From Nitrosopumilus sp. (GTDB taxonomy: Archaea; Thermoproteota; Nitrososphaeria; Nitrososphaerales; Nitrosopumilaceae), in assembly GCA_963662625.1 (NCBI GenBank), contig OY759726.1, forward strand, positions 192,001 to 256,000: DNA of 64,000 bases, written 5' to 3'. The notes below the pieces were generated by a model. It saw only the letters and a program-made list of their open reading frames with translations. It was not told where the DNA came from and ran no database searches. A program made the position numbers and the translations under genes. Below, in pieces: positions 16,335 to 42,502 of this stretch. Each line of letters begins with the position of its first letter. The stretch's first letter is position 1.

Positions 16335-16365
16335 CCGCCCCGCCAGGCGGGAGCGGGGGGAGGGT

Positions 16366-19604: not shown

Positions 19605-19648
19605 CCCCCCCCCCCCGCCCGGGACGGCCGCCGCGCGCCGGCCAGGCC

Positions 19649-22010: not shown

Positions 22011-23156
22011 TCATGGGTACGACGCCGCCAGCAGGTCGACGGCTCCCACCATCATTCCTAATTGGCTCAGGCACATCACCGCCGCCATCACCCGCGGGTT
22101 GGCCGGGATCATCTCGGTCCACGCCGTCCTCCACCTCCCCGGGACCCCGACGTCCACGAGCATTGGGAGGACCAGCCCCTGGACCAGCCAATCCTCATTT
22201 TGCCTGAACCTGAGGAGGAAGGATCCCCCGGCGTTCCGCTCCATCCACCTCCTGTTCATGATCGGGGTGGCCTTTTTCGGGGCGTCGAACCTGGTTTTGG
22301 AGTGGTTGATCTTCCTCTCCCCCCAGTGGAGCGTGTCGGACTCCTCCCTGTACGCCCACGCCGCGCACTCCAGCTCCCATGGGACGTCCAGGTCGTACCC
22401 GCGCAGCGCCTTCAGGATGTGATCCAGCTCGGCGGCGCCGTCGTCCACGCCCGGGTCTATCCAGAATGGTTCCTCCAGTGCGGCCATGCGCCTCTGCTGG
22501 CCGGCGTCGATCTTCCACTTCCTGTCCAGCCTGGCCCGTTCCGGCGGTCCCCCCGGCGGCGGGGCGGGGCACGGGGGCTCCCCGTAGGCGATCCAGGATA
22601 TTATTCGCCCGTCGTAGACGTTGCCGTCCCAGAGCGCGGGGATGATCCCCTCCATCCTCCGGTTGGCCGGGACCATGGCGGTCCAGCGCTTCTCCCCCTC
22701 CATCCTGACGGAGAACAGCGAGTCCATCCGAAGGTCGGTCCCCTGGCGCTCCGGGTCGATCGACGCCGTGATCCGGAAGCGGGATGAGGAATGGCGCTCC
22801 AGCCACCCGCGGTTCATGACGGGGAGCTCGCGGCGCCGGCCGTCCTGCTCCCAGGAAAACGTGGGGGAGATCTCCCGCCGCTCCCACTGCCAGTTGTGCA
22901 CCCGCGGGGGGAGGGAGAAATCCAGCGCGCATATCCCTACCCAGTGGCGGCCCATCATGTTCAGCCACGGGTCCTCCCACTGGTTCCACGCCGGCCCGAT
23001 CAGGTCGGGGTGGATTATGCAGTCCCGCGGCGCCGCGCCCCCCGCCTCCCTGGAAAACTCCGCGGTTTCGCCGGCGATCCTGCCCACTATGCCGTCCTCC
23101 AGCGCCTGGATCATGTCGTCCAGATTGATGGTGTGGGGGAAGTCGCGGCCCCTCAC
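22011..23156 (-). CDS. Trp-rich hypothetical protein with an internal duplication
   Basis: PVMNRGWLERH...WTAMVPAN vs PIMNRRWMERN...WTEMIPAN; GTGA overlap. Confidence 0.6.
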   Translation of the reverse strand: MRGRDFPHTINLDDMIQALEDGIVGRIAGETAEFSREAGGAAPRDCIIHPDLIGPAWNQWEDPWLNMMGRHWVGICALDFSLPPRVHNWQWERREISPTFSWEQDGRRRELPVMNRGWLERHSSSRFRITASIDPERQGTDLRMDSLFSVRMEGEKRWTAMVPANRRMEGIIPALWDGNVYDGRIISWIAYGEPPCPAPPPGGPPERARLDRKWKIDAGQQRRMAALEEPFWIDPGVDDGAAELDHILKALRGYDLDVPWELECAAWAYREESDTLHWGERKINHSKTRFDAPKKATPIMNRRWMERNAGGSFLLRFRQNEDWLVQGLVLPMLVDVGVPGRWRTAWTEMIPANPRVMAAVMCLSQLGMMVGAVDLLAASYP

Positions 23157-23437
23157 AGCCACAGCGCCGCCCGGAGGGGGAGGACGGCCACGTGGCCGCA
23201 CCTGGAGCACGTGGCGGGGACGGTGGCGACGGTGGGCCTCATCGGCTCGTACTCGTGCTCGCATTCCCGGGATGGCGCGGGCGCGTCCCGCGCGGCCCTG
23301 GTCCCCCTGGCCCTGGGGGCCGCCCTGGCCGACCTTCCGAGGGCGGTGGAGCAGTCGTGGGAGCACGTCCTCCGCCTCGACGTGGTCTTGGCGCGGTACC
23401 CGCCCCCGCACACGTCGCACTTCCTGTCCTCCTTCAC
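23153..23437 (-). CDS. Zinc-finger protein
   Basis: CDVCGGGY...TCSHDC, CEH...CSRCGH; coupled by overlaps. Confidence 0.55.
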   Translation of the reverse strand: MKEDRKCDVCGGGYRAKTTSRRRTCSHDCSTALGRSARAAPRARGTRAARDAPAPSRECEHEYEPMRPTVATVPATCSRCGHVAVLPLRAALWL

Positions 23438-23937
23438 GGCCGCCGCCCCCCGCCGCCGGCGCGCGGCCCGCGGCGTCCGTTCCCGCCCCTGCCGGCGGCC
23501 TGGCGGCCCCGCCCAAGGTGCCAGGATACGAAGTCGAACCAGCTCCTCCCCTCCTCGGCGAACCTTCGGACGTCTATCACGCAGTATGGCACCCCGTGCC
23601 TCCTGTACTCCCTGTTCCTCCTGGCGGTCTTCTCCCTGTTCCTCCCCTTGTAGTGCCAGGCGCCGTCGACCTCGATCACCAGCCTGATCCCCCCGCTGCC
23701 GTCCAGGACGGTGACGTCCGGGGTCCTGACTATCAGCCCGGTGTCCAGCAGGTTCCCCATCCTCCGCGACACCAGGGCGTGGGGGATCCCGTGGCAGAGC
23801 GCCACCACCCTCCCCCTGCACATCAGCAGCGCGTCCTCCCTGCGGATGAGATCCCTGTCGATCCCCTCGGTCTGCTCGAGGTAGGACGCGATCGCCGCCA
23901 GCTGGACGCCGTCCCCGGCGCCCGCCGCCCCCATCAC
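23434..23937 (-). CDS. Vsr/DUF559-like PD-(D/E)xK endonuclease
   Basis: TPDV...LVIEVDGAWH...RN..Y...G. Confidence 0.75.
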   Translation of the reverse strand: MMGAAGAGDGVQLAAIASYLEQTEGIDRDLIRREDALLMCRGRVVALCHGIPHALVSRRMGNLLDTGLIVRTPDVTVLDGSGGIRLVIEVDGAWHYKGRNREKTARRNREYRRHGVPYCVIDVRRFAEEGRSWFDFVSWHLGRGRQAAGRGGNGRRGPRAGGGGRRP

Positions 23938-24473
23938 GTCCGTGTCCCCCTGTGGATCATGTCGAGGGTGGGAGCGAATTCCCCGATCCTGCCGGCGTCG
24001 GCGATCCCGTAGAATATCCCCCCGGCCTTCCTCAGGAGCCCGCCGTCCACCAGGGAGCCGAAGGCCACGCTGAAGTCCTTGTCGCTGACCACCTTCCCGT
24101 ACGTCATGGCCAGCTCCTCGCTGGACCTGGCGTACGTCCCCCCGTTCATGGCGTGCGCGCGGGCAAGCGATAGTATCATCAGGGCCAGCGGGGTGATCCC
24201 CAGGCCAGCGGCGGCGCGCATCGCCAGGCCTGAGGAGGTGGCCCACAGGGAGTCGCCGTCCCTGGCCAGCAGCCCCTCCCGCACCGCGATGCACAGCTTC
24301 TCGTCGAAGAGGTTCCCGGCCCCGCCGCGGATCTCCTCCCTGAGCCGCCTCGCGTCGACCACGCCGTCGCCGACCCCCTCCAGGATCCTGGACAGCAGCG
24401 AGCCCCGCCTGGCCCTCCTCCTGTGCCAGTCCGGGGGGAGCCTCCCCCTGTCTGCCGGGGCGGGCGTCCTCAT
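23934..24473 (-). CDS. Hypothetical protein, possibly tandem winged-helix
   Basis: ATGA overlap; EGLL..DG..LW and LVDGGLLRK..GIFY wing-like motifs. Confidence 0.5.
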   Translation of the reverse strand: MRTPAPADRGRLPPDWHRRRARRGSLLSRILEGVGDGVVDARRLREEIRGGAGNLFDEKLCIAVREGLLARDGDSLWATSSGLAMRAAAGLGITPLALMILSLARAHAMNGGTYARSSEELAMTYGKVVSDKDFSVAFGSLVDGGLLRKAGGIFYGIADAGRIGEFAPTLDMIHRGTRT

Positions 24474-25225
24474 CCCCCCCACCGGATCTCCCCGCAGCCC
24501 GGGGGGTGGTACGAGACCTCGGCGGCGGCCATGTCTATCAGGTACCACCTGCCGTCCCTGCCGCGGGCAAAGTCGACGCTCCATGCCGCGCCGCCGACCC
24601 TCCGGGCCACCTCGCGGGCCATGCCGGCGATCGTCGCCCCGGCGGCGGCCACGGCGCGGTTCTGCCACTCCAGTATCCCCCGCCACCCCGGGTCCATCCC
24701 GCGGGCCAGCCGGCCGCCCCTCTCGGCCCACGCCGCGACGGCGTCTGGGACCCAGTACGGGTGGACGCACCGCGGCTCCCCGCCGGAGACGAAGGCCCTG
24801 GCCTCGACGGATATCGGGAGGCGGTCGAAGGCGCAGAACCCGGCGTCCAGGTCCAGCCACTTCCTGAGCACGACGGCGGAGTCCACCAGGTCGAAGCACG
24901 CGTTCAGGTCCAGGATCTCCATCAGGTGCGGCAGCAGCGCCCTCCTGGACGGCAGCCTGCAGGTGCGGCGGAACATGTGCTTCTGGGAGGAGTGGTCCGT
25001 CCGGAGGAACACCGGGTACGGTTCCAGATCCTCGAGCGCCGCGTACAGCTCCTCCGCGTGGGAGCCTAGGGCCCTCTCGCCGTCCATGACCCCCGACAGC
25101 GTGCGGTATGGGATCTCCACGATCCGGGTCTCCGGCTGCGGGATGTCCAGGTCCCTCACCAGCGGGTGCCAGTGCAGCATGCTGCTCCTGACGTAGTGCC
25201 CGGCGAGATCGGAGAGGTCAGACAA
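24470..25225 (-). CDS. ATP-grasp domain protein (R2K/Cdc123-like)
   Basis: PVFLRTDHSSQKH, VLRKWL, EARAFV..G, WSVDFA....WYLIDM. Confidence 0.7.
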   Translation of the reverse strand: MSDLSDLAGHYVRSSMLHWHPLVRDLDIPQPETRIVEIPYRTLSGVMDGERALGSHAEELYAALEDLEPYPVFLRTDHSSQKHMFRRTCRLPSRRALLPHLMEILDLNACFDLVDSAVVLRKWLDLDAGFCAFDRLPISVEARAFVSGGEPRCVHPYWVPDAVAAWAERGGRLARGMDPGWRGILEWQNRAVAAAGATIAGMAREVARRVGGAAWSVDFARGRDGRWYLIDMAAAEVSYHPPGCGEIRWGG

Positions 25226-25376
25226 CGTCGAACCCCACCGGGTTGGGGTGCCCCCTCGGGCACTCCGCGGACACCTGCGTGACCGTGATCCCCCCCTGCC
25301 TCGGGCTTATCGGGGCGGTGGCGGCGCCTATGGGGGACCCGCACGCGTAGCACCTGCGCGGCCTCGTCCTGATCAC
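25218..25376 (-). CDS. Small zinc-ribbon protein
   Basis: CYACG...CPRGH; GTGA overlap. Confidence 0.45.
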   Translation of the reverse strand: MIRTRPRRCYACGSPIGAATAPISPRQGGITVTQVSAECPRGHPNPVGFDVV

Positions 25377-26308
25377 CGGCCGCCCCCCCTCCGGTACTGC
25401 AGCGGGTTCCGGATGCCGCGGCAGCTGTGGTCCCGGCGGCACAGCCCCATGCCCTCCAGCTTCGCGCATCCCTGGGGGGAGTAGCCGGCGCCGTCGATGT
25501 GGGCCACCTGGGCCGCCGTCACCCGCTCCGAGTAGTCCGGGGCGCCGGAGAACAGGGAGGCGACCTCCCCCCTGGAGCGGCCGGCGCGGAGCATGTAGGA
25601 CGCCACCAGGAACCTCCCGGAGTGGTTCAGGTTCTCCCCCCTGGACATCGCGGCCGCGGCGTGTTCCACGCAGGGGGGGATCCCGTCGCTGCCGGCGGCC
25701 GGCCTCCTGGCCGGCCTGGGCGCCATGGCCGCCACCTCCGACGCCGGGCCGGATATGTCGCCCTCCCACCCGCGGTCCAGCCTGACCCCCCGTATCGCCG
25801 ACATCACGGCGTCCGTCAGGTCCGCCCGGAGGAGCCTCCTCAAGTCGGCGCCGGCGAGCCTGACCATCCCGGAATCGACGTCGCGGTTCACCAGCTTCCA
25901 CGCCGCCTCCCCTATCCGGACGGAACGCCGGAGGTACGCCGGGACCGGCACCAGGTACGTCCCGCCCGACGCGGCCGCCCCGATCATCTCCGCGGCGTCT
26001 GCCATCCTCCCGGCCAGGGCGGCCTCGGCGCGCCTCGATTCGCCGAGGGCGAACCTCCTGGAGAGCGGCTCGCTGCCCGCGGCGGAGAGGAGCACCAGGG
26101 ACGCGGCGTAAAGGACGGCCGACTTTGGGTAGATCCTCCCACCCACCACGTCCTGGCCCTCCCTGGACGGCCTGCCGGCCACGCAGGAGGAGATGTTCTC
26201 CACGGCGCCCCTCAGGATCCCCGGGTCGCGCAGCGCCGCCCCCATGTCGAACGAGCCCGCCTTCAGCGACTCGATCGCGCCGAGCGCCGGGTACCTCGAG
26301 GCGTCCAT
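25373..26308 (-). CDS. priL: DNA primase large subunit
   Basis: IPPCV...GENLNHSGRFLVASY, PDYSERVT..QV.HI, YS..GC.KL..MGLC....C..IRNPLQY (Fe-S domain). Confidence 0.85.
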   Translation of the reverse strand: MDASRYPALGAIESLKAGSFDMGAALRDPGILRGAVENISSCVAGRPSREGQDVVGGRIYPKSAVLYAASLVLLSAAGSEPLSRRFALGESRRAEAALAGRMADAAEMIGAAASGGTYLVPVPAYLRRSVRIGEAAWKLVNRDVDSGMVRLAGADLRRLLRADLTDAVMSAIRGVRLDRGWEGDISGPASEVAAMAPRPARRPAAGSDGIPPCVEHAAAAMSRGENLNHSGRFLVASYMLRAGRSRGEVASLFSGAPDYSERVTAAQVAHIDGAGYSPQGCAKLEGMGLCRRDHSCRGIRNPLQYRRGGGR

Positions 26309-26309
26309 C

Positions 26310-27866
26310 TCAGGCCAGCGCGTCGGTGTAGGAGCGCGGCACGTAGCGCTTCATCGTCCTCAGCAGGTCCCGGATCCCAGAATCGATGACGTAGGTCGGG
26401 GCCGAGTCCCCCTCCTCCCTGACCGACCTGCCGCACCCCTGGAGGAACCTCGTCAGGGCGGCGTACCTGTACCACACCTGGCTCGCCGCCGCCTTGCGCC
26501 TCACCCTGGGGTCGGACATGGACGGGTAGGGGACCTTGTAGATCACCTGCCACTCCGACAGCCTCCCCCTCAGGTCCACGCCGCTCCAAAGCGAGGGGGA
26601 CAGCAGCACCGTCGGCTCCTCGGACTCGACGTGCCTGGCAAGCTGCTCCTCCCTGGTGGAGTCCCCCCGGGCGAACACGGGGACGAGCCTGTCTGGTTCC
26701 TCGGCGTTCCTGATTATCTCCACGCACCTGGCCACCGAGGTGGCCAGGATCAGCCCCTTCTGCCCCGAGTGCCTCCTCATTACCTCGTTCACCCTCCCGC
26801 AGGCGGCCAGGTGCTCCGAGGGGGTGGTCCTCTCGTTGATCCTGGCGACGTCCAGCATGTGGATCCTCCTGTTTTCGGGGGGGAAGGGGGAGTCGTGGAC
26901 CTCGACGAAGGCCGCGTCGCGCACGTCGATCCCCATGGAGTGGCAGAACGGCTCGGGGGAGATCGTCGCGGACATGAAGAGCTGGCGCGGCGCGTCAAAG
27001 TACGTCCGCGCCACCCCGGACACGTCGGCCATGGTGACCGTCAGCCTCCTCGAGCCGGAGCCGTACCCCGTGACCAAGTTGTCCGGCCTGGCCTCGGCCT
27101 CCCTGATCAGGAGGCGGCACTTTTCGGCGACGAAGGCGTAATAGTTGACGTTGGAGCCGTCCCCCCTGGCGCGGCGCGCAAAGTCGGCGTGTATCGCCCA
27201 GAGCGCGGCGCGGACGGAGTCGACGTCCGCCCTCGGGCCGACTTCGGCGCCGCACTCGTCGAGCTGCTCCCTGTCCACGGTGTGGGTCACGTGCGCCACC
27301 AGGGCGTCCTCGATCTCGTGCGCCTCGTCGCAGACCAGCGTGTCCTTCCTGGCCTTCCCGTGGCGGGCGAAGTGGAAGAAGGAGGCGTAGTTGTACACGG
27401 CGGCCTCGGACAGCATGGCGGTGTACTTTGCGGTGTAGTAGAGGCACGAGTCCGCCGGGCCGCTGACCGTCCCCCCGGGAAGGACGGTGAACTCCGACGG
27501 CATCGGCTTGCGCGTGCATGTCATCTTCTTCCCGCCCTCCCTCCAGGTGCACCTGCCCTGGCTGCATGGCGCGCCCTCGGCCGGCCCGCCGTCGAGTTCC
27601 AGGCACCTGTAGTTTGACTTGCCCATCGCCACCGGCAGGCCCGCGAAGTCGCGGGCGTACTGGTGCTGGAGGAGGCGCTGCCTCGTGACTATCCCCCCTC
27701 CCCCGTGGTGGTTGAGGAACGTCATGGCCACGTGGCTCTTGCCGACCCCGGTGGGGGCGCAGAGTATGACGTGGCGGTACCCGGACTTTAGCGCCTCGGA
27801 GATCCTGGAGATTATCTCGGCCTGCTGGGGGCGCGGCGTGGCGCCGCGGGGGAACGACGCTAGCAT
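26310..27866 (-). CDS. XPD/DinG-family SF2 DNA helicase
   Basis: PRPQQ, APTGVGKS, GKSNYRC with Cys cluster, DEAH, MSAT, WSGVDL, KVPYP, QGCGRSVR. Confidence 0.9.
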   Translation of the reverse strand: MLASFPRGATPRPQQAEIISRISEALKSGYRHVILCAPTGVGKSHVAMTFLNHHGGGGIVTRQRLLQHQYARDFAGLPVAMGKSNYRCLELDGGPAEGAPCSQGRCTWREGGKKMTCTRKPMPSEFTVLPGGTVSGPADSCLYYTAKYTAMLSEAAVYNYASFFHFARHGKARKDTLVCDEAHEIEDALVAHVTHTVDREQLDECGAEVGPRADVDSVRAALWAIHADFARRARGDGSNVNYYAFVAEKCRLLIREAEARPDNLVTGYGSGSRRLTVTMADVSGVARTYFDAPRQLFMSATISPEPFCHSMGIDVRDAAFVEVHDSPFPPENRRIHMLDVARINERTTPSEHLAACGRVNEVMRRHSGQKGLILATSVARCVEIIRNAEEPDRLVPVFARGDSTREEQLARHVESEEPTVLLSPSLWSGVDLRGRLSEWQVIYKVPYPSMSDPRVRRKAAASQVWYRYAALTRFLQGCGRSVREEGDSAPTYVIDSGIRDLLRTMKRYVPRSYTDALA

Positions 27867-30232
27867 GGGAAGAACGCCCCCATGGACTCCTGCCTGGTGC
27901 CGTCGGCGATGTCCCTGGCCGAGATCCCCATGGCGGGGAGGATCTGGTCCAGCGTGGACGCCAGGAAGTCGACGTACTTTTTGCGGTCCACCGCCGACGC
28001 CGACGCCATCTCGACGGGGACCGCGCCGCCCCTCGTCTTCACGTAGGCCACGCTGTCGCCGGCGCCGAGCCTCGTCCCGGCCCCGGCCAGGGCGTTGGCG
28101 GCGCGGACGTGCTGGGGGAGGGCCTTGGAGTACTCGGCCGGGTCCCTTGACAGGTTCATCCGGAAGGCCAGCTGGTTGAGGGGTATGTCGCCGTCGCGCA
28201 GGACGCCGACGTCGGCCCTGACCTGGTCCCTTATCCTCCCCCTGGCGTCGTCCACCTTCCCGGGTTCCGTGATCCCCGCGAGCAGCGATATCACCCGGGA
28301 GAACGCGGCGGAGATGAACGGCGGGGTGTGGCTCTTCTTCCCGGTGAGCCCCTTGACGTCGGCCTTCCCGTCGGACTTGCGGATCCCGACGTAGTTCTTC
28401 TTCAGCCCGGACAGTATCATGTAGCGGTACTCGCGGTCCACCTCGAGTTCCACCCCGTCGCGGCGGCCCGCCTCCTCGATTACCCTCCCCTTCATGGCCT
28501 CGTCGGCGCCGCGGATGAACACGGAGTCCGTGTCGCCGTACAGCACGTCCACCCCGTTGGCGCGGCAGTATTCCACCAGCCCGGTGATGGCGCGCCTGCC
28601 GGACGCCGTGATGGAGTCGGCCACCGGGAGGTAATACAGGGGGAACGCCTCCATGGCCATCACCCCGTAGCTCGCGTTCATCAGGACCTTGATGGCCTGC
28701 GAGATGGTGTCGTACTGCCTCCCCTTTCCCCCCGGCAGCGACCCGTCCCTGGCCAGCCTCTTGTAGTACCCCACCCTGAGCTTCCTCAGGGCCCCTATCA
28801 GCACCGCCATCATCCCGTTCCGCCTGGAGCATGACCAGTATTCCGTCCCTGGGATCAGGTGCCCCCGGCACTCCGGGTGCGGGCAGCCGACCGTCTCCCA
28901 CGATATGTTGTTGCGCTCGATCAGCCCGGGGTACATGGACGCGAAGTCCAGCACTGTCACGTCCCAGTGCACCCCGGGCTCGGCGTCCAGGACCTTCCCG
29001 CCCTCGAAGCCCGCCCCGGGGGTGGCGTTGCGGGCCCTGCACTCGGACTCCCTCGGCACCAGCATCCCGTTGGCGCGCATGTGGCGGTGCATCATGGAGA
29101 GGATCCAGCGCGAGATCCCGGTCCTGGACAGCCTGTCGATGGGAAGGGACGTTATCCTCGCCAGGATGACCAGCAGCTGCATGACTATGCCCCCGTCGTA
29201 CGCCGACAGGCCGTACGTCATCGCCGCGTCGTGGTGGCAGTACCTCGCCAGGTCTGCCGGGGGCATCCTGGACGCCTCGGAGCCGGACCCGATCTTGGAC
29301 TGCCCGGTCATCGCGCTCGACACCGCGTCCAGCCCGTAGGTGTCGTACCTCCCGGAAAAGGCGTAGTTCTGCAGCGAGCGGTTCGAGAACACCCCGTAGA
29401 GGTCCACGTGGACCGGGCCGTCCACGAGGACCCTGTCGCCGGCGCGGCGGAAGAACCCCCCGTGGGCTATCCCGAGCCGCTCGGCGCGGTTGGCGAGGTA
29501 GGGGACGTCGAACCCGTCCCCGAAATAGCTCAGTATCACCGGGTAGGACCTCAGCACGGAGATGGCGTCGGAGATCATCTCCGACTCGCTCTCGTACCTC
29601 CTCACGGTCACCCCTCCCTCCTCGTAGGTCCCGGCGGGGGACGCCAGCACGAATGACTGCTCCATGTCGCCTGCCGAAAAGGCCACCGCGGTCACCCCGT
29701 GCCTCCCGGACGTGTCGACCCCCTCGGTCTCGATGTCGAACGCGCAGCGGCGGAACTCGGGCACTGGAGCGTCGAGCATGTCGGCCAGCCTCGATATCTC
29801 CATCCCCAGGCCCTCCGAGTCGGGGAGGGCGGAGTCGCCGATCCCGGCCAGCACCTCCGACAGCCTCTCCTGCATCCTGGCGGACTTGACGTGCGGGTGC
29901 GGCCCGGGGGGGCAGCCCGGGGGGCCAGGGACGTACCAGCACCCTGGGATGATCCCGTGGTCGTACAGGTACGACTCGGCGGGGTGGATCGAGCCCTCCC
30001 ACCCGTCGCGGTCGCCATCCTCCCGGCGGAACCTGCGCAAGGAGTCGGTGATCAGGTCCAGCCTCGGCTCGCCGCCGCCGTCCTCCACCAGGCCGTACGC
30101 CGCGTGCCTGCCGGCATCGTGGACCACAGTCCCGGAGTCGGAGTAGAATTTCAGCTTCGCGGCACCGTCCTCCACGTACGCCGAGAGGAGCAGCATCGGC
30201 CCCCCGGCGCCGTGGGGCCGGCCGTGCGTCAT
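27860..30232 (-). CDS. polB: Family B DNA polymerase (archaeal PolB1-like)
   Basis: Exo I AFDIE, Exo II FDVPYL, Exo III YCHHDA; DFASMYP, KVLMNASYG, YGDTDS, KKNY, VKGLTGKK. Confidence 0.95.
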   Translation of the reverse strand: MTHGRPHGAGGPMLLLSAYVEDGAAKLKFYSDSGTVVHDAGRHAAYGLVEDGGGEPRLDLITDSLRRFRREDGDRDGWEGSIHPAESYLYDHGIIPGCWYVPGPPGCPPGPHPHVKSARMQERLSEVLAGIGDSALPDSEGLGMEISRLADMLDAPVPEFRRCAFDIETEGVDTSGRHGVTAVAFSAGDMEQSFVLASPAGTYEEGGVTVRRYESESEMISDAISVLRSYPVILSYFGDGFDVPYLANRAERLGIAHGGFFRRAGDRVLVDGPVHVDLYGVFSNRSLQNYAFSGRYDTYGLDAVSSAMTGQSKIGSGSEASRMPPADLARYCHHDAAMTYGLSAYDGGIVMQLLVILARITSLPIDRLSRTGISRWILSMMHRHMRANGMLVPRESECRARNATPGAGFEGGKVLDAEPGVHWDVTVLDFASMYPGLIERNNISWETVGCPHPECRGHLIPGTEYWSCSRRNGMMAVLIGALRKLRVGYYKRLARDGSLPGGKGRQYDTISQAIKVLMNASYGVMAMEAFPLYYLPVADSITASGRRAITGLVEYCRANGVDVLYGDTDSVFIRGADEAMKGRVIEEAGRRDGVELEVDREYRYMILSGLKKNYVGIRKSDGKADVKGLTGKKSHTPPFISAAFSRVISLLAGITEPGKVDDARGRIRDQVRADVGVLRDGDIPLNQLAFRMNLSRDPAEYSKALPQHVRAANALAGAGTRLGAGDSVAYVKTRGGAVPVEMASASAVDRKKYVDFLASTLDQILPAMGISARDIADGTRQESMGAFFPC

Positions 30233-30326
30233 CGGCCCCTCCCGTACGCCATGCAGTAGTGTACCAGGCCGGCGGGATCCGATCCGATCCGGGTGTCGCG
30301 CCGGCACCTCTTGCGGTATCCGGTGA

Positions 30327-30710
30327 TCATCCAATGCCGCCCCCCATGGCCGGCTCCAGCCTGGAGTCCGGCCCGGCGTCGAGCACCAGCCTCCTGGCCA
30401 TCTTCCTGATCAGCCCCATTGACTCGCGCGAGCGGCGCTCCCGCTCCCGGTCGAGGACGGCGCTGGTCATGGTCGGGTCCGTCACCCACCGCCTGGCGGG
30501 CGCCCTCCTCTTGATCGAGATCCTGGCGGAGACGTCCTGCGGCGCCGGGTGGCGATCGCGTCTCGTGAACCTCGCCCACGCCGTGCTGCACCCCCCGCCG
30601 CACGTCACCCTCCTCGACGGCCTTCCAGGGGGGGACTTGCAGCGGAACTTCCGCCCGCACGCCGGGCACCTGCGCTCCACCCAGAAGCCCCTCCCGACGT
30701 ACCGCTCCAA
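30327..30710 (-). CDS. Arg-rich zinc-finger protein
   Basis: CPACGRKF...TCGGGC. Confidence 0.55.
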   Translation of the reverse strand: MERYVGRGFWVERRCPACGRKFRCKSPPGRPSRRVTCGGGCSTAWARFTRRDRHPAPQDVSARISIKRRAPARRWVTDPTMTSAVLDRERERRSRESMGLIRKMARRLVLDAGPDSRLEPAMGGGIG

Positions 30711-31115
30711 CTACCTCCCCCTCCTGCGCAGGATGGCAGAGGCGAGTTCCATCGCCAGGCGCTTCCGGGCCTGGCTCCTCCTGGTCGCCTCCCTGCTCAC
30801 CACCTTTCCCCACCCCCCGGCGCCGTCCACCCTCCGGCTCCTCCCGTTGTGTGCCATCGGGTGCTTGATGCTCACCGCCGCCACCCCGTGCATTTTCCTC
30901 GGGAATTTGTAGAGGGAGCATCCCCCGCCGCAGGTCATCCGCCTGTTGGGGTGCTTCGGGGTGTCCTTCACCAGGAGGCGCGCCCCGCAGGTGGCGCAGG
31001 CTATCTCCTTCTCGTACCAGTGGATCTTCTTGGCCGCCCGGCCCCCGCCGGCGCCGGCCGTCCCGCGCGCGGGGGGCGTCCGTGGGGAGAGAACCGCGCC
31101 GGCCGCCGCGATCAT
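30711..31115 (-). CDS. Arg/Lys-rich zinc-finger protein
   Basis: CATCGARL...TCGGGC; ATGA overlap. Confidence 0.55.
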   Translation of the reverse strand: MIAAAGAVLSPRTPPARGTAGAGGGRAAKKIHWYEKEIACATCGARLLVKDTPKHPNRRMTCGGGCSLYKFPRKMHGVAAVSIKHPMAHNGRSRRVDGAGGWGKVVSREATRRSQARKRLAMELASAILRRRGR

Positions 31116-31369
31116 GTAAGCCCCTCGATGATCCCGGTGATGGCGGCTATCTTCAGCCTGCACCCCCGCAGGTCCGAGGACAGCTCGTCCTGCCATCCCT
31201 TGAGCTCCATCAGGATTGTCGCCATCCTCGCGTCCCGCGCCGATCCTGCCATGGAATCCAGCCTCCTCGAGCCGCTTTCCAGGGCGGCGGCGGCCCGGTC
31301 GATTATCTCCAGCACCTCCCGCATGGTCTCCAGGTCCTTCCCCCGCGGCGTGGCGGCGCCGGGGTTCAC
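31112..31369 (-). CDS. Small coiled-coil protein
   Basis: Heptad-like helix; overlaps with both neighbours. Confidence 0.5.
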   Translation of the reverse strand: MNPGAATPRGKDLETMREVLEIIDRAAAALESGSRRLDSMAGSARDARMATILMELKGWQDELSSDLRGCRLKIAAITGIIEGLT

Positions 31370-32220
31370 CGGCCAGCCCTCCCGAGCATCCTCGCGGCCA
31401 TCCTGGCCCGCTGGTGCGCCGCGACGGCGCGGCGGAACCCCGGTTCCATGGGGGCGAACCACCCGGCGGAGTCCCGGTGCGTCGCGTACTCCAACAGCAT
31501 CCTGAGCGCGCCCGCCGGCCTGGATGGGAAGGCGGCCGCGCATCTGGCCAGGGCGAAGGGGGGGTAGTACCCGATGCAGCGCATGGCTCTCCCGTAGCCG
31601 CGGAACCCGTGGGACGAGCCCGCCGGCCTGAGGTGCCTCCCCCGCGCCCCGTCCACCACCTCCACCCTGCGCCCCTCCAGGATCGCGTGGTACAGTGGGG
31701 CGGACTCCCATGCGCAGCTGTGGTTGTAATGCCCCAGCCGCCCGGCAAACCACCCCTGGTCGACCATCCTGCCGCTGCCGCGGGGGAACCCGTGGCTCTT
31801 CCCCGCGGGGGGATCGCCATCCAGCCGCCCCCCGGCGATCACGGCGCCGGCGGCGACGGCCCCCAGCAGGAGCCGGGCGTAATCCCACTCCAGCACGGTG
31901 TCGCCGCCAAGGTGGAGGATGCAGTCGTGCGCCCCGTCCAGGCACCTGTTGATTAGGCCTGGGAGCCTCCTGTAGTCCCTCTCCGGGTGGCTCTCCATCC
32001 GAAGGGTGACCACCCCTGGGTTGTCGCGGCAAAAGCCCTCCACTATCCCGGTGGTTCCGTCCGAGGAGCCGTCGTCGATGACCGACACCGACGACGGCGG
32101 CGCGTCCTGCGCCAGGAGCGATTCGAGCACCCGGGAGATCGTGGACTCCTCGTCCCTCACCGGGATTATGGCGTAATATGTGAGGCCCCGCGCCGCGGCG
32201 CCGCCACTCCCGCCAGCCAT
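31366..32220 (-). CDS. Family 2 glycosyltransferase
   Basis: IIPVRDEE..I..VLESLLAQ...VIDDGSSDGT; LGGD at the DxD position. Confidence 0.85.
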   Translation of the reverse strand: MAGGSGGAAARGLTYYAIIPVRDEESTISRVLESLLAQDAPPSSVSVIDDGSSDGTTGIVEGFCRDNPGVVTLRMESHPERDYRRLPGLINRCLDGAHDCILHLGGDTVLEWDYARLLLGAVAAGAVIAGGRLDGDPPAGKSHGFPRGSGRMVDQGWFAGRLGHYNHSCAWESAPLYHAILEGRRVEVVDGARGRHLRPAGSSHGFRGYGRAMRCIGYYPPFALARCAAAFPSRPAGALRMLLEYATHRDSAGWFAPMEPGFRRAVAAHQRARMAARMLGRAGR

Positions 32221-32999
32221 CAGGGTCGTGGCGCGGAATGGGCGCCTGGCACGTCGCTGATCCGTGACGTGCGTGTCACTGCGCCTGGAACGTGGGGGCA
32301 GGCTGGGTTCACGCCTGTCTCTGATCGCCGTTTTGGTAGGACATAGAAGTCGCTTTGGACATAGATGCCGCTTACTGTCTGACCATTGCAAAAAAACGGC
32401 GACTCGCCGTATTTTTTTTCGCAGTTTTTCCGGGAGGGAGTGCTATGTCCAACCCGACTTCTATGACCGTGGGCATTTTTCCAACATTTTTTGAAGATTT
32501 TACAACATTCCACGATTTTTATTCCAATAACCCGAAAATTTTTTTTTGACGATATTCGCACTGATCTGGGGGTGTGCGAGTCGCCGTATTGAAAATCACC
32601 GAATTTGGCAAATCTATGTCTTCCGCGTCCTGATCGCTCCAAAAAAATGTCTCTTACGCGCTCTTTTTTCATTCCAACCTCACATTTCACCCAATAAAAC
32701 GTGCCAAATTTTTTCAGAGCCGCGATCATGAAAATAACCCCGTTATAAAATTTCGGCAGATTTTCAGAAACCCATCTATGTCTTCTATGACCTTTTGATC
32801 CTGGCAATCCATCACAAACAAAGCATGACAGAACATCCCGCAAACATGGACGCACGTCCGGAATATCATGCCGAAACAGGACCCCAGCGATCAAAAAACA
32901 CCCGGTTTCCGAAATGACTTTTGGGCAAAATGTCCGATTTGATCCACCACTCGCGATCAACCCTCCAATCCTACCCAAACCCTCGCCGTTTTCGATCAT
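32220..32999 (-). CDS. AT-rich ORF spanning the putative origin; function unknown
   Basis: 259 open codons; ATGA overlap with the helicase stop and TGATG overlap with the GT2 start; atypical composition. Confidence 0.35.
   Translation of the reverse strand: MIENGEGLGRIGGLIASGGSNRTFCPKVISETGCFLIAGVLFRHDIPDVRPCLRDVLSCFVCDGLPGSKGHRRHRWVSENLPKFYNGVIFMIAALKKFGTFYWVKCEVGMKKERVRDIFLERSGRGRHRFAKFGDFQYGDSHTPRSVRISSKKNFRVIGIKIVECCKIFKKCWKNAHGHRSRVGHSTPSRKNCEKKYGESPFFCNGQTVSGIYVQSDFYVLPKRRSETGVNPACPHVPGAVTRTSRISDVPGAHSAPRP
32340..32791. promoter_or_regulatory. Putative replication origin (iterons, inverted repeat, A/T tracts)
   Basis: 25-bp IR at 32340-32364/32443-32467 (3 mismatches); TCTATG(A/T)C at 32460, 32613, 32775, 32784 and inverted at 32340, 32358; long A/T tracts; lies next to the SF3 helicase. 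Confidence 0.6.
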
Positions 33000-35332
33000 C
33001 CAACGTCCTCGATTTCGTGCGTGGAGTGGAAATGCTCAATCGGCAGGCCCTTGGAAACTATGGCCCCGTGTTCCCACGGCCCGGCGTTGCAGGTCTTGCA
33101 GACGAATTTCGCACCCTTCCGGAAGTAGAGGCCGTCGCACTCGGTGATCTTTCCAGTCTCCAGCATCAGCTCGACGTACCTGTAACCCTCGTCCTCGGAG
33201 AACTGGCCGGAGCGCACGAGCTCCCTGATTATCGCGTCCCTCCTGGCCTCGGCGGCCTCGAGCCCGCCGAAGATTGCCATGAATATGTCCGCCTTCACCA
33301 TGTCCTCCTCCCTGAGGTCCGCCGGCCCCTGGATGCTCTTGGGGGGCTTTAGCTCCTCTGCCTTCCGGCCGCGTTCCGCCCCGGCCGGCCCCCCGGCCTC
33401 CGCCTCCATGCCGCCAGGGGAGGACACCTCGGCGGGCTTGACGTCACCCACGCTCCCAGCCAGCGCGAGATCCAGCCAAAAGTCCGCCTTCTCCCCCCCG
33501 ACCGCCTCGCTCTTCCACATGCATCCCATGGAGTTCATCCTCATGGTAAAGCCATCCTCGGTCGGGGCTTCCACCCCCTCCGCGGTGCAGTACTTGCGGT
33601 ATTCCCTGTACATCACGTCCTTCCTGGTGTTAGCCCCCTCCTCCTTCCTCACGTACCGCACCAGGAAGCCCTCCACCGGGTCCGTCCCGGGCTTGCCCTT
33701 CGGGCCGCCCCCGCCCCCGGCGCCTTGGCCGTCGCCTTCCTCCCCCTCGCGCCTCATGCGCACCCCCACCCAGACGTTGGTGGTCTTCCCGTCGACCTTC
33801 TTGTCCTCCCAGACGTACCCGAGCGACGTCATCGCCTCGGTGAGCCCGCGGGCCGGCTTCGGCCGCAGGTTGTTCCCCCGGCAAAACTCCACGTAGGCCC
33901 TGTACGCCTCCTTCTTGGGCACGTGCGCCTCCACGTCGGTCTTGAGCGAGTGCCGGCTGAACATCTGCACCGGGTCGGCCCTCTCCTTCCACGTCTGCCG
34001 CATCTCCTCCGTGCTGGCCTCGTAGGTGAGCTTCCCCTCCCTCCTGACCTCGATGGCGTGCCTCACCAGGAGGTTGAGTATCCCGCTGCGCTCCTCCTCG
34101 GTGGTGAGCTCTGAGAACAGCCGTATGTTGTTCGCCGCCCCCTTGAACTGGTGGTGGAAGTTGATGATCACGAACCTCCGGAATATGGCGTCAGAGTCCT
34201 CCTTCACCTCGGGCAGGCGGTTGCAGGAGAAGAACATCTTGGCGAAGCTCGCCATGGTGTACGGCGGCTTGTTCTTCTTCTCCACGGTTATCGGCTCGCC
34301 GGTCACCAGCGACTTTACCACCCCCATCCGGTCCAGCTCGTCGGAGCTTATGTCCGCGTAGACGTTCATCAGCTTGCCGTCCAGCACGGAACGGCTGAAC
34401 CGCTGCCAGATGAGGTCGTGTATGGATATGTGGGAGACGTTGTCCCGCCCGAAGACCTCGATCATCGTCCTGAGGAGGGTCGACTTGCCGTTGTGCCCCT
34501 CCCCCACGAACATCATGATCTTCTCGAGGTTGAGCGCCCCCCCAAGCAGCGCCACGCCGAAGAGTTCCAGTATCACGGTCCGCTCCTCCTCGTCGTGGAG
34601 GACCTGCTCGAGGAACTCCAGGAACCGGTTGGCGGTCCTTTTCGGCTCGTAGGCGGTGTTCACCTGCCTGCGCGAGGGGTACGCCGGGCTGTGCTCCCCG
34701 AGCTCCCCAGTCGACATGTCCAGCAGGCCGTTCTTGACGTTGACGACGTTCGGGTCCGGGTCGAAAATGTCCCGCTTGACGTACGTGTTCGCCCGGATCG
34801 TGTTTATGATCTCGCTGCGCATGTGGGAGCTGCACTCGGGGACCTTCCCCTCCGCCATCTCCTTTATCAGGACCTCCCCCCCGAGCCTGTACACCCCGTC
34901 CCGGTAGAATAGGACCTCCTCGGTGTCGTCCAGCGTGAGGAACCTGACCTCCCCCATTATCTCGGCGGCGTACTCGGTGTGGCTCCGTTCCTCCCCCCTC
35001 CCCCTCCCGGGCGCCGGCGCCTTCCTGGCCTGGGGCTCCCCCTTCCCGTAGTTCCTGTCCTTCCCCCCGAGGCGCTCCATGGTGTCGCGGTCGAGCTGTG
35101 AGAGGAAGCACTCGACGTCCGCGCACATCGCGCTGGACAGGCCGTACTTGCCACCGTCAAAGTCGAACCGCTTCCCCGGGGGGACGTCGTGCTTCTTCCT
35201 CCTGCAGGCGGACTGCCCCTCCCCGTTGACCGCGTAGAGCTCCAGCATGGCCTCCACCCGTCCCGGGGCGCACCGGAAGTGCCTGGCGAACGTCCCGATG
35301 ACGTCGTCGCTGTAGTTGGCCTCGTAGCTCAT
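32996..35332 (-). CDS. SF3 (D5/P4-type) replicative helicase with C-terminal winged-helix domains
   Basis: D5_N-like NVKNGLLD...HSP, GEGHNGKST, KSLVTGE.ITVEKK, FSCNRLP, RRF; two Y..Y..(F/Y)C wH repeats. Confidence 0.9.
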   Translation of the reverse strand: MSYEANYSDDVIGTFARHFRCAPGRVEAMLELYAVNGEGQSACRRKKHDVPPGKRFDFDGGKYGLSSAMCADVECFLSQLDRDTMERLGGKDRNYGKGEPQARKAPAPGRGRGEERSHTEYAAEIMGEVRFLTLDDTEEVLFYRDGVYRLGGEVLIKEMAEGKVPECSSHMRSEIINTIRANTYVKRDIFDPDPNVVNVKNGLLDMSTGELGEHSPAYPSRRQVNTAYEPKRTANRFLEFLEQVLHDEEERTVILELFGVALLGGALNLEKIMMFVGEGHNGKSTLLRTMIEVFGRDNVSHISIHDLIWQRFSRSVLDGKLMNVYADISSDELDRMGVVKSLVTGEPITVEKKNKPPYTMASFAKMFFSCNRLPEVKEDSDAIFRRFVIINFHHQFKGAANNIRLFSELTTEEERSGILNLLVRHAIEVRREGKLTYEASTEEMRQTWKERADPVQMFSRHSLKTDVEAHVPKKEAYRAYVEFCRGNNLRPKPARGLTEAMTSLGYVWEDKKVDGKTTNVWVGVRMRREGEEGDGQGAGGGGGPKGKPGTDPVEGFLVRYVRKEEGANTRKDVMYREYRKYCTAEGVEAPTEDGFTMRMNSMGCMWKSEAVGGEKADFWLDLALAGSVGDVKPAEVSSPGGMEAEAGGPAGAERGRKAEELKPPKSIQGPADLREEDMVKADIFMAIFGGLEAAEARRDAIIRELVRSGQFSEDEGYRYVELMLETGKITECDGLYFRKGAKFVCKTCNAGPWEHGAIVSKGLPIEHFHSTHEIEDVG

Positions 35333-36612
35333 CCCTTCCCCCCCGCCAGCGACACGTTCCTCCTGGCCACGGCAAACGCCGCGGAGTCGGTCTCGCACCC
35401 CAGGAACTTCCTCCCCAGCGAGACGGCGGCCGCGCCAAACGCGCCGCTGCCCATGAACGGGTCGGCGACCAGCTGCCCGGCCCTGCTGAGCCTCCCGATG
35501 TAGTACGCCGCCTCCACCCCGGACTGCGCCCACGGGTGCTCCTCCTTCTTCCCGGGCTCCGACCTCACCACGTCGGAAACCGTCACCTTCCCGCGGTACC
35601 TCCCCCTGGTGTACCACAGCATAGGCTTGTAGCCCACGCTCACGCCGTTGCGCCACATCCTGGCGCGGCCGCCGGTGTGGATCACGGCGAAGAGCCACTG
35701 GTACTCCAGCCCGGCGCCGGAGAGCATGCGGATCGCGTCTGGCAGCATGTAGTTGCCGGCGAGGCACACCAGCGACCCGCCGTCCTCCAGGTGTTCCATG
35801 GCGTACTCCCCGAGTTCCGCGTAGACCGCGACGTTCTTCCTGTCGTAGGGCGGGTCGGTGATTATCAGCCTTATCTTCCCGGGGGGTTCCACGTCCTGGA
35901 ACGGCCCGTGGTGCAGAGACGCCCCCTTGGCAGCCGGCACCCTGGCCCTCCTGGCCCTCCTGGCCTCCTCCTCGTAGGCCTCCTCCTTCTTCAGCCTGGA
36001 GTAGACGCTGCTGACGGTGTTCCGTGACCTGCCGTCGTCGATGCTGTCCAGCAGCCTCCCGTACTTCTCGTCGGTCTTGGCCTTTTTCCCGATCTCCACC
36101 AGCTTGTCCAGCGTCCCGTGGCTCACCCCGACGTAGTCCGATATCACGTCCCTGGTGCGCCCCTGGCCGCCCCCACGCCTTCCCGCGGGAGCTGCGGCCG
36201 AACCGGCCCCGCCGGCGCCGCGCCACCCCTTCCCGCCTCCAGGCCCCGCCGCCTTCCCCCCGCCGGCGCCCCCGCCCCTAGAGTTCTCCCTGCCGGCCCT
36301 GGCCACGGGGGGGCCCATCGCCTCGTGTATCGCCACTATCTCACGGGCCGTAAAGTCCTTGCGCTGGGTGTTCTCGTGCAGTTCCCCAGTGAGCGGGGAC
36401 TTGAGGTCCACGACCACCACCGGCACGCTGGATATCCCCAGCGACCTGCACGCCTCGAGCCTCCTGCGCCCGGCGACCAGCCTGTTCTCCCTGGTGACCA
36501 CTATCGGGTGCAGCAGGCCGATCTCCCCTATGCTGTCCCGCAGCCCGTCCAGGTCGCCAAGATCCACCCGGTGCCTCCTCCCGACGCGGATCTTCTCCAC
36601 CGCCAGCTTCAT
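35329..36612 (-). CDS. ParB-like N-terminal domain fused to an adenine DNA methyltransferase
   Basis: GLLHPIVV...LVAGRRRLEA, EN.QRKD; ITDPPY before DPFMGSG (beta-class order). Confidence 0.85.
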   Translation of the reverse strand: MKLAVEKIRVGRRHRVDLGDLDGLRDSIGEIGLLHPIVVTRENRLVAGRRRLEACRSLGISSVPVVVVDLKSPLTGELHENTQRKDFTAREIVAIHEAMGPPVARAGRENSRGGGAGGGKAAGPGGGKGWRGAGGAGSAAAPAGRRGGGQGRTRDVISDYVGVSHGTLDKLVEIGKKAKTDEKYGRLLDSIDDGRSRNTVSSVYSRLKKEEAYEEEARRARRARVPAAKGASLHHGPFQDVEPPGKIRLIITDPPYDRKNVAVYAELGEYAMEHLEDGGSLVCLAGNYMLPDAIRMLSGAGLEYQWLFAVIHTGGRARMWRNGVSVGYKPMLWYTRGRYRGKVTVSDVVRSEPGKKEEHPWAQSGVEAAYYIGRLSRAGQLVADPFMGSGAFGAAAVSLGRKFLGCETDSAAFAVARRNVSLAGGKG

Positions 36613-36789
36613 CCCGCGCCCCACACGGCGGGGCCCATCCCCATTGGCCGTCTAGGCCGCCTCCCATGACCCGGCCGGCCGGCCGCACAATTCGCACCTT
36701 CCGTCGTGATCCCCCGAATCGCAGTCACGCTCGATCCTGACGCCGAGGGCCTCGGCACATTCGGCGCACGCCCACGCGACGTCCATGCG

Positions 36790-37020
36790 TCACCCGGCGC
36801 CGCCAATGGCGCGCCGCTCCAGGGCGTCCCGGGCGTCCAGCCTGGCGCGGGCCCTCTCGATGTCATCTTCCAGGACTTTCCTGGTGGGGTACTTGATCTG
36901 CCCGCGGCGGAGGCGCGGATCCCATGTCCAGAACGCGCCGCCGCCGTCGCGGATGTAGCGCCTCCCCTCCCCGTCCTCGTAGATCCGGTGCGACTTCAGG
37001 CACCTGAGCCCCGAAGGCAT
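36790..37020 (-). CDS. Small hypothetical protein
   Basis: Member of the coupled minus-strand operon. Confidence 0.5.
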   Translation of the reverse strand: MPSGLRCLKSHRIYEDGEGRRYIRDGGGAFWTWDPRLRRGQIKYPTRKVLEDDIERARARLDARDALERRAIGGAG

Positions 37021-37343
37021 CAGGACCTCCCGCCTGGAGGATCCGCCGGCAGGCCAGCCGACCGCCCGGCCATGATCTTCGCCTCAGCGCGATCCGGGGA
37101 ACCCGTGATTATCCTGATGGCGCTGTGGACGTCCTCGACCGATCTCTCGTACTCCTTCCCGCGCAGCAGCGACCACGTCCTGGAGAATTCCCGGCCATCA
37201 CGGCGCGCCAGGGCGGGCTGGACGTGCCCGTCCGCGCAGTGCCTGACGTAATCCGCGACGTGCATCACCGGGTGGGGCACCCCCCCGGAACCGGGACGGG
37301 CGTGCCTGAGGTATTCGATGACGTGCCACCGCTGGTCCATCAT
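37020..37343 (-). CDS. Small hypothetical protein
   Basis: ATGA-coupled operon member. Confidence 0.5.
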   Translation of the reverse strand: MMDQRWHVIEYLRHARPGSGGVPHPVMHVADYVRHCADGHVQPALARRDGREFSRTWSLLRGKEYERSVEDVHSAIRIITGSPDRAEAKIMAGRSAGLPADPPGGRS

Positions 37344-37540
37344 GACTCCCCCCGCGGGGCAGCCTTCCCGGCGCCGGTGATGCCGGACCCGGCCCGGCCC
37401 AGGTGGTACATGGACTGGGCCAGGGACTCGGTCTCCCCGCTCGTGATGCCGGGGGTCATCATGAGCCGGACCACGCTTTCCATGGCGTCGGAGACGTCCG
37501 ACTTGGCCTGCCGGTACCTCATGGCCTTCAGCTTCTCCAT
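37340..37540 (-). CDS. Small hypothetical protein
   Basis: MEKLKAMRY...; coupled to the downstream gene. Confidence 0.45.
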   Translation of the reverse strand: MEKLKAMRYRQAKSDVSDAMESVVRLMMTPGITSGETESLAQSMYHLGRAGSGITGAGKAAPRGES

Positions 37541-37718
37541 CACCCGCCCCCCCACGCGCGGCAGCTGTCGCACAGCCCGCGCCGCGCCGGACCCGGACGC
37601 TTCAGCTCCCCCCCCGCAGCTCATGCATGCCCGGCGTCCAACCCGCACCCCGTGCAGGCCCGCCGCCCCGGGGCGTATTCGTGGACAGACATCCTGAAGC
37701 ACCTCGGGCATCTCTCCT

Positions 37719-38213
37719 TCATCCGATCCACGGCCCGCCCACGGCGCGTTCCAGGCCGCCGCCCGCCGCGCGCGGGACGGCCAGCGGCTTCCATTCCTTC
37801 AGCGCCGGGATCCCCCTGCACGCCCAGACGAGGATCCTGGTGCAGTCGGCAGAGAGTTCCGCGGCCTCCCACCGGTCATAACTGGAGCTGAACCTCGCCG
37901 CGACCGTCGTGTCGCGGTCATACTCCCCGTACACGCAGCCGCACGGCTCCTCCCCGGAGCACGCAAAGTGCCCGGCATCCCAGTCATGCAGGTTGACCGC
38001 GTGCCCGCACGCGCAGAGGCGGGACTCCAGGGCTGGAGGGTCCATGTCAGGGTCCCCCAGGCCGGAGAGGTCGGCCGGCAGGCACCCGCGCGGGGCCGCC
38101 AGCCCGCCAGATCCGCCGTCCCCACGGCGGCCTGGCACGGCCGAGCCACGGCGCCCCCGGCAGGCCGGGCCGCCGCGAGGCGCCACCATCCCTGGACAGT
38201 TCCCGTCAGTCAT
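37719..38213 (-). CDS. Cys/His-rich hypothetical protein
   Basis: CACGHAVNLH...C....CGC; start uncertain. Confidence 0.4.
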   Translation of the reverse strand: MTDGNCPGMVAPRGGPACRGRRGSAVPGRRGDGGSGGLAAPRGCLPADLSGLGDPDMDPPALESRLCACGHAVNLHDWDAGHFACSGEEPCGCVYGEYDRDTTVAARFSSSYDRWEAAELSADCTRILVWACRGIPALKEWKPLAVPRAAGGGLERAVGGPWIG

Positions 38214-38219
38214 TGTCCA

Positions 38220-42454: not shown

Positions 42455-42502
42455 GGGGATGGTGCGGCCCGGATCTAAATAAACACCACAGAAGATGGCA
42501 TG

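Follow-up and report, generated by a model that had tools for sequence, protein, structure and literature searches.

The 64,000-nucleotide stretch of Nitrosopumilus DNA considered here (the window: contig OY759726.1, positions 192,001 to 256,000) holds, judging from gene content and synteny, the replication module of a ~114.5-kb integrated mobile element of conjugative type, whose host is an ammonia-oxidising thaumarchaeon. The module includes a gene for PriL, the regulatory, non-catalytic subunit of primase, in an element with no recognisable gene for PriS, its catalytic partner. The module is probably old and host-derived, and its orphan PriL probably recruits the PriS of the host. In this proposal five parts would act together: a superfamily 3 (SF3) helicase without a primase, an adjoining iteron-like, A+T-rich origin, a PolB1-like polymerase, an XPD-like helicase, and a full-length PriL. 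PriL would pair with host PriS via a conserved surface of its N-domain, and the hybrid primase so formed would serve the polymerase and helicases of the element.

The window belongs to a genome (G000) assembled as a single contig (C1) of 1,858,698 bp and 99.5% complete. An archaeal AmoA gene is present and a search of the genome for MCR alpha found none; thus, the idea of a methanogen was dropped and the host is identified as an ammonia-oxidising thaumarchaeon. The G+C content of the window is high (59-73% per 2-kb step), and raw lists of open reading frames (ORFs) are therefore crowded with shadow frames. Genes were called by the third-position G+C (GC3) of each frame together with a simple ORF caller, and then compared with Pfam and PHROGs.

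The whole element occupies about 119,952-234,503 of G000:C1 and ends at about window position 42,503, its right-hand 42.5 kb forming window positions 1..42503. The genes that border it at 119,951 and 234,504 are neighbours in a genome of the same genus (G002) and in another of the same family (G008), indicating that the ~114.5 kb between them is an insertion. At the right end, 82 bp inside the synteny junction, lies an integrase-like gene (41147..42421, minus strand; phrog_216 'integrase', E 2.6e-6). Attachment-site direct repeats were sought at both ends, where only a shared 11-mer was found. Conjugation-type genes encode TraG/VirB4-like proteins (TraG/AAA_10/HerA-type ATPases), a TrwB/VirD4-like protein (TrwB_AAD_bind), T2SSE and T2SSF; a TrbL match from a relaxed scan is faint (E 0.0036, below the cut-off). 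Other element genes specify an actin-like protein, TBP, a Holliday-junction-resolvase-like nuclease, many methyltransferases, a restriction enzyme and a TIR protein. The G+C content is 66.3% in the element and 63.2% in the rest of the genome. Three public DNA runs, all from one study, contain the stretch, and a 58-kb contig of one of them (X1) covers window positions 24000-42846 with 0 differences, so the integrated state is not merely an artefact of the present assembly.

A first-pass annotation, made from the window's sequence, had listed polB, helicase and priL genes with intact motifs plus a gene for an SF3 helicase, and GC3 and Pfam recover all four on the minus strand. The family B DNA polymerase (27860..30232, with an alternative TTG start at 30334) is PolB1-like, with polymerase (PF00136, E 9.8e-40) and exonuclease (PF03104, E 1.6e-14) matches. 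Its translation shows FDIETE, DFASMYP, KVLMNASYG and YGDTDS, so the exonuclease and polymerase motifs are intact; FDIETE, DFASMYP and YGDTDS are catalytic motifs of the two domains. The next gene (26310..27866, 518 residues), immediately upstream of priL, encodes an XPD/Rad3/DinG-like superfamily 2 Fe-S helicase with matches to Helicase_C_2 (E 1e-16), ResIII, DEAD and phrog_2488 'DNA helicase' (E 1.9e-81). Five homologues share its Walker A residues G40, G42, K43 and S44, the DEAH box D180-E-A-H183, and cysteines C88, C101, C106, C117 and C141, all invariant, as fits an XPD/Rad3/DinG-type enzyme; comparison by sequence with solved structures gave 0 matches at E ≤ 0.001. PriL itself is encoded at 25373..26308 (311 residues; PF04104, E 3.1e-11). 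The polB and helicase genes overlap by 7 nt and a 1-nt spacer separates helicase from priL, so that polB, the XPD-like helicase and priL form one tightly packed operon. Judged by gene order, PriL goes with the XPD-like helicase rather than with the SF3 one.

The Fe-S C-terminal domain of PriL is required for primer initiation, not for binding to PriS. By profile score and Fe-S cysteines, the element gene is a priL. It scores 43.6 bits against a curated PF04104 cut-off of 22.4 (41.5 bits in a six-frame search of the genome) and aligns end to end with host PriL (33% identity over 333 columns, E 2e-53); in an alignment of 24 PriLs no sequence departs from its four Fe-S cysteines (C213, C281, C290 and C296), and the WKLVN motif of that alignment is conserved in it as well. 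What is missing is a gene for PriS alongside. The host has its own copies elsewhere, an adjacent priL-priS pair near 798-800 kb and a PolB gene near 48 kb, and the element genes are therefore not the only polB and priL of this genome; had they been, the first-pass annotation would have taken its proposal as refuted. The gene directly after priL is priS in the host and in 30 of 41 metagenome loci.

Close relatives of the element PriL were sought in several collections. A word-indexed protein search gave 3 matches, and a search of plasmids and viral contigs gave none. Among phages there is one match, covering 22% of the protein, to a haloarchaeal virus gene annotated 'DNA primase'. The PriL loci recovered from genome contigs (3) and metagenomes (41) all look chromosomal, with PolB, helicase or D5 nearby in 0 of them. 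Kazlauskas 2018 (PMC5862659) describes PriL as 'nearly exclusively' tied to chromosomal primases, with PriCT domains as the mobile-element version, and Raymann et al. 2014 (PMC3914693) give PriS and PriL as essentially single-copy. Our search of the literature found no description of a stand-alone PriL in mobile elements. A second PriL-like match in another genome (G039) was rejected as a member of the module: within a 338-residue ORF (L150:4039-5055), an 80-residue piece is 64% identical to host PriL, its first Fe-S cysteine is replaced (PSH for PPC), and the ORF is flanked by split terminase genes and a DDE transposase. This suggests a fragment of priL that was captured and then decayed.

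The absence of a catalytic primase was examined at several levels. The first-pass annotation saw no PriS, MCM or PCNA gene in the window, and none appears among the 75 window ORFs scanned (Pfam, E ≤ 0.001-0.01). A search of the whole genome for PriS (PF01896) returned 1 match, the host's own, and a search for PF09250 returned 0 at E ≤ 0.1. Pfam found no archaeo-eukaryotic primase (AEP) or TOPRIM family among the 140 ORFs called in the element, nor did a relaxed scan of 12 of its orphans. With a profile made from 19 PriS sequences, the best E among the 996 stop-to-stop ORFs in the element was 20; the host PriS control gave 2.7e-182. A PriS or AEP gene elsewhere in the element, which would have undone the proposal, was thus not found across the 114.5 kb. 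An Atlas look-up of a 501-residue orphan yielded scores of at most 0.82 (including 0.81 for a DUF927 row), below the meaningful level.

The fourth gene (32996..35332, minus strand, 778 residues) encodes a D5-like SF3 helicase without a primase domain (D5_N, DUF5906 and Pox_D5; PF08706, PF19263, PF03288). A domain of ~95 residues at the N-terminus is followed by D5_N, the SF3 ATPase, Pox_D5/winged-helix regions and C-terminal cysteines. The first ~115 residues match neither AEP nor TOPRIM (Pfam, E ≤ 0.01; PHROGs), in agreement with the first reading of this N-terminus, and the match to phrog_864 'DNA primase' begins only at position 209 of the 1064 in that profile. The N-terminal domain has the pattern C-x4-H-x21-C-x4-C, whose C43, H48, C70 and C75 are invariant in 5 homologues. 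A profile search of 1.84 billion representatives found it in 17 proteins, in every one of which it is either the N-terminus of a protein of 650-820 residues or stands alone in a protein of 60-200 residues. All nine long proteins that were scanned carry the D5_N and SF3 regions, and in 0 of the 17 does an AEP precede the domain. A word-indexed search with the helicase N-terminus found only itself. The AlphaFold model of the domain (mean predicted local distance difference test, pLDDT, 79.1) has 0 Foldseek matches in the PDB at E ≤ 0.001, and VIA-align gives a best Z of 3.7, no convincing structural neighbour. The idea that the Cys/His pattern is a primase zinc finger of the UL52/PrimPol type found no support from Pfam, the profile search, Foldseek or VIA-align. 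In two related elements the full-length D5-like gene has another, shorter one immediately upstream of it (L117:13973-14917 in G208, 314 residues; L115:10617-11876 in G511, 419 residues).

Just downstream of the D5-like gene, a non-coding stretch of ~770 bp (32220..32995) has about 45% G+C within the 66% of the element, with GC3 about 0.4-0.5 in all frames and none coding. It contains A/T tracts, inverted repeats and a cluster of the sequence GACATAGAWG (≤1 mismatch): six of the eight matches in the window lie at 32340-32791, in both orientations. The expected number for the window as a whole is 2.66, and a count of 8 is reached in 0 of 100 shuffles. The D5-polB spacers of three related elements (G511, G102 and G175) contain tandem or inverted repeat arrays of their own, and arrays at the matching position include ten 54-bp tandem units (L115:14471-15186) and 17-bp units (L119:6140-6224). 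By position and analogy only, this stretch is read as the likely replication origin of the element.

The module is not peculiar to one genome. Among the 401 sampled genomes of the family, which were searched with the helicase, the 30 best loci were examined. Five have priL directly after the helicase (G000, G102, G511, G175 and G208), and the remaining 25 are a solitary chromosomal paralogue; 5 of 401 is a lower bound (at least five), with second helicase matches in other genomes left out of the count. In wider flanks the four relatives all carry a D5-like gene and PolB as well, in the order D5, PolB, helicase, PriL in G102, G511 and G175, and with PolB farther away, followed by D5, helicase and PriL, in G208. 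In each of the four, the helicase gene overlaps priL by 4 nt. Identities to the proteins of the window range from 32 to 51% across the relatives (38-46% for the PolBs), which indicates that the element family is old. G511, G175 and G208 each have a single, distant host PriS (PF01896), and the PriS-less module is kept in 3 or 4 further elements. Two PriS genes are found in G102: that of the host pair and one for a 296-residue PriS, 3.5 kb beyond the element priL. The latter (L031:5458-6348) lacks about 62 residues that are found in 18 of 18 cellular PriS sequences (alignment columns 239-315) and has S in place of a nearly invariant H289; its DxD and SGNxGFH motifs are kept.

Trees of PriL and PolB against the host chromosomal copies, the check that the first-pass annotation had proposed, place the element clades as derivatives of thaumarchaeal cellular genes. 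The PriL tree has 24 sequences, of which 8 are of the element type (five from the genomes above and three from a protein collection); these form one side of a branch (92/98), sister to the 14 cellular PriLs of the order (96/94*). The PolB tree has 27 sequences, with no outgroup and long element branches, and includes no PolB2, PolB3 or casposon sequences. In it one branch (99*) sets the 5 element PolBs apart, and another (99*) separates them, together with 3 PolBs of the family, from 19 PolBs of other families. The earlier description 'host-like PolB1' is consistent with this: the element PolB is 43-44% identical to the only other PolB of the host and groups with the cellular PolBs of the family, in contrast to an identity of at most 26% with phage PolBs. 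Makarova 2014 (PMC4104785) calls the thaumarchaeal cellular polymerases PolB1 and gives PolB1 as the only active B-family polymerase in most Thaumarchaeota. With a host paralogue at G000:1701148 the element helicase shares 38% identity, compared with 31% over 81% of the query for the best phage match and about 25% for the other phage matches listed. From these relationships, PolB, the XPD-like helicase and PriL appear to be old captures of thaumarchaeal cellular genes, which then evolved within the element family. The PriS of the G102 element has a different position: it stands at the base of the cellular PriS of the family (99/95* for the family plus the G102 PriS), less deep than the PriL clade. 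Because G102 lies within the element trees, where it pairs with G175 (100/99* in the PriL tree), a single late gain of PriS takes fewer steps than repeated losses, of which there would be three or more. This placement is suggestive, not decisive, of a single late gain in G102.

The first-pass annotation went on to propose that the element PriL captures host PriS and would thereby redirect priming to the element's own helicase. Complex prediction was carried out with host PriS (19-row alignment) and residues 1-200 of the element PriL (24-row alignment). The pair scored 0.88 in 3 of 3 runs, and the best of 3 controls scored 0.02; the mark is attained by 58 of the 80 solved complexes used for calibration and by 2 of its 110 mismatched pairs, counts that hold only roughly with the custom alignments used. 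Contacts agree between the runs at 96% or more, and the partner pLDDT is at least 85. The predicted contacts fall on PriL residues 121-148, among them the invariant W137-K-L-V-N141 and G147. Of its 20 contact residues, the element PriL shares 15 with host PriL and 9-14 with the other element PriLs; over the whole N-domain the identity with the host is 63 of 200. In silico, then, the proposal has support: the contact motif is conserved, the predicted pair, which resembles solved complexes, far outscores its controls, and the module has persisted. Given G102, it is not a general rule for these elements, and the pairing itself is a prediction. Since the element has no recognisable catalytic primase, it most likely borrows host PriS to start DNA synthesis.

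Several observations weigh against this conclusion. PriS-PriL complexes have already been solved, and thus the score of 0.88 shows likeness to a PriS binder rather than binding. The contact motif is conserved in all PriLs, so the 15 identities of 20 may reflect a general constraint instead of adaptation to the host. About half of the element ORFs belong to no family and might conceal a very divergent primase; nor does the N-terminal Cys/His domain of the SF3 protein match a known fold. Because of the PriS in G102, the PriS-less strategy is not universal in the element family, and this lineage apparently can use a PriS of its own, as the DxD and SGNxGFH motifs of the 296-residue protein suggest. 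Alternatively, though with more steps, an ancestral PriS may have been lost several times. Finally, the G175 contig stops 1,082 bp past priL, where a neighbouring PriS could be unassembled, which makes G175 a weaker PriS-less case, though the search of that whole genome found one PriS.

If PriL does recruit host PriS, one can also envision, tentatively and with considerable doubt, a replisome of two helicases. The SF3 helicase would open the iteron origin and track along one strand; the XPD-like 5'-3' helicase and PriL would form a lagging-strand 'helicase-primase' with host PriS, so that the element would hijack the host primase by providing no more than a regulatory subunit tied to its helicase; and the capture of PriS in G102 would be the next step. 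Other readings dispense with host PriS as a partner. PriL could be an Fe-S accessory of the XPD-like helicase and/or PolB, for example by holding the primer 5' end or the template at hand-off, with priming left to the host primase. The adjacency of helicase and priL in 5 of 5 elements, the single operon that they form with PolB, and the 4-nt overlap in four elements, which suggests co-translation and a complex, all favour such a role. Nevertheless, it is unlikely: conservation in the element PriLs is highest in the PriS-contact region, for which docking on PriS is predicted, and we know of no PriS-independent role for a full-length PriL. A cryptic catalytic primase with PriL as its partner could reside either in the N-terminal Cys/His domain of the SF3 helicase or in a family-less ORF: that ~95-residue domain is conserved and is confined to D5_N-SF3 proteins or found alone, and the many ORFs that match no family leave room for it. 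We rate it as quite unlikely, given that the domain is small and its model matches no primase fold (itself weak evidence), and that no orphan is common to the five elements (tblastn, E ≤ 1e-4), unlike D5, PolB, helicase and PriL.

The same predicted binding of PriS would also be expected if PriL were a takeover or interference factor that pulls PriS away from the chromosomal replisome, a role in keeping with the wealth of host-interaction genes in the element (several methyltransferases, restriction genes, a TIR-domain protein). Full conservation of the Fe-S C-terminal domain and the position of the gene in a polymerase operon make this distinctly improbable. That PriL is a functionless, decaying relic of a time before the element lost its PriS is very improbable. 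The PriS still present in G102 is what one would expect of such a history; however, the open frame, the Fe-S cysteines and the core motifs of PriL are intact in 5 elements whose PolBs have diverged to 38-46% identity with that of the window, G102 is nested so that one gain takes fewer steps than the losses, and its PriS branches less deeply than the PriL clade. Lastly, PolB, helicase and PriL all have their nearest counterparts among thaumarchaeal cellular genes, as they would in a second, non-mobile chromosomal replisome of the host. This is scarcely credible, for it is contradicted by the lack of the 114.5-kb block between the same flanking genes in G002 and G008, and further opposed by the occurrence of the module in only 5 of the 30 best loci (401 genomes) and by the integrase and conjugation genes. 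Recruitment of host PriS by the element PriL therefore stays the reading that we prefer.

Among known systems, the element resembles the thaumarchaeal integrated elements surveyed by Krupovic et al. 2019 (PMC6563490), which are likewise large, reside in ammonia-oxidising archaea, and carry integrase, VirB4/VirD4-type and transcription-factor genes. Some of those elements have a PolB of their own (NitEve-E6, ThaMY3-E2) or AEP-SF3 helicase proteins. However, the NitEve-E6 PolB is described there as casposon-like, and the SF3 helicases of that survey bear an AEP domain, which is missing here, where a separate PriL is found instead. PriL and PriS occur 0 times in the main text of the survey; its supplementary tables might list such genes. 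PolpTN2 and mobile-element primases with fused PriL-like/PriCT domains (PMC3973330, PMC5862659) also place a PriL-related helper in a mobile element, but there an AEP catalytic domain is joined to the helper or lies next to it, whereas here a complete PriL of the cellular type stands alone. Like cellular archaeal PriS-PriL (for example, the S. solfataricus PriSL and PriSLX structures), the element PriL is full length and has the four Fe-S cysteines and the predicted PriS-contact region; it differs in having no PriS gene adjoining it or in the element and in forming a clade of its own. The SF3 helicase shares D5_N, the SF3 ATPase (DUF5906) and Pox_D5 with the D5 proteins of poxviruses and nucleocytoplasmic large DNA viruses and with phage and plasmid primase-helicases, and its PHROG 'DNA primase' matches are strong over the helicase part; the primase part of those profiles is unmatched, with the ~95-residue Cys/His domain in its place.

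Other archaeal mobile elements have likewise captured and kept cellular replisome genes, namely MCM helicases (PMC6563490, PMC5862659). Unlike in MCM recruitment, three genes (PolB1, XPD-like helicase and PriL) are held here as an operon, and the captured primase gene specifies a non-catalytic subunit. Thus, the retention of only the regulatory primase subunit is the unusual feature, within a known theme of recruitment of the host replisome. Host replication genes captured by mobile elements are usually catalytic (MCM, PolB, AEP primases); this thaumarchaeal element family has kept only a non-catalytic primase subunit through deep divergence, together with an XPD-like helicase gene and PolB1. 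If the hybrid primase exists, it would be a clear case of subunit replacement that redirects a host enzyme, and would offer a natural handle on the part that PriL plays in primer initiation and hand-off, in nitrifiers that are abundant and hard to study. The origin and helicase of the module also make a candidate autonomous replicon for genetic tools in ammonia-oxidising archaea.

Several other genes lie next to the module, all on the minus strand. Downstream of priL, an R2K-clade ATP-grasp protein (24470..25225; PF14243, E 6.9e-10) is 48% identical to the product of a gene in the G511 element (L115). A glycosyltransferase gene (31366-32160; Pfam/PHROGs) lies between polB and the candidate origin. 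Upstream of the D5-like gene is a fusion of ParB-N and a DNA methyltransferase (35329..36624; PF02195 and PF01555), a homologue of which adjoins the D5-like gene in G102, G511 and G208 (tblastn).

Farther left, window positions 1-21847 and G000:C1 160,000-192,000 are rich in methyltransferase genes; the window part alone has at least four C5 or N6/N4 DNA methyltransferase genes (984-2123, 11081-12127, 13197-14408 and 19054-19569). A PAPS-reductase-like gene (163-933) is shared with the G511 element. At about 149,000-160,000 of G000:C1, inside the element and left of the window, a block of lower G+C (50-59%) encodes a BsuBI/PstI-type restriction enzyme, Eco57I-type and C5 methyltransferases, a HerA-type ATPase and a TIR-domain protein, and appears to be a defence island carried by the element.

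Outside the element, the contigs of run X1 split at a 31-base node (window 42817-42847) with a depth of 60, compared with about 26 and 22 on either side. The node sits within the host gene just right of the element and probably reflects co-occurring strains that have this word in common. Just left of the element, a second stretch of ~8 kb (G000:C1 109,472-117,544) has no counterpart in the syntenic region of G002 and G008 and may be another small insertion. Still in the window, an HNH endonuclease gene, a DUF285 gene and sequence of lower G+C (48200-53000) come after a tRNA-Arg(GCG) gene (47795-47871); this region may be a separate small island.

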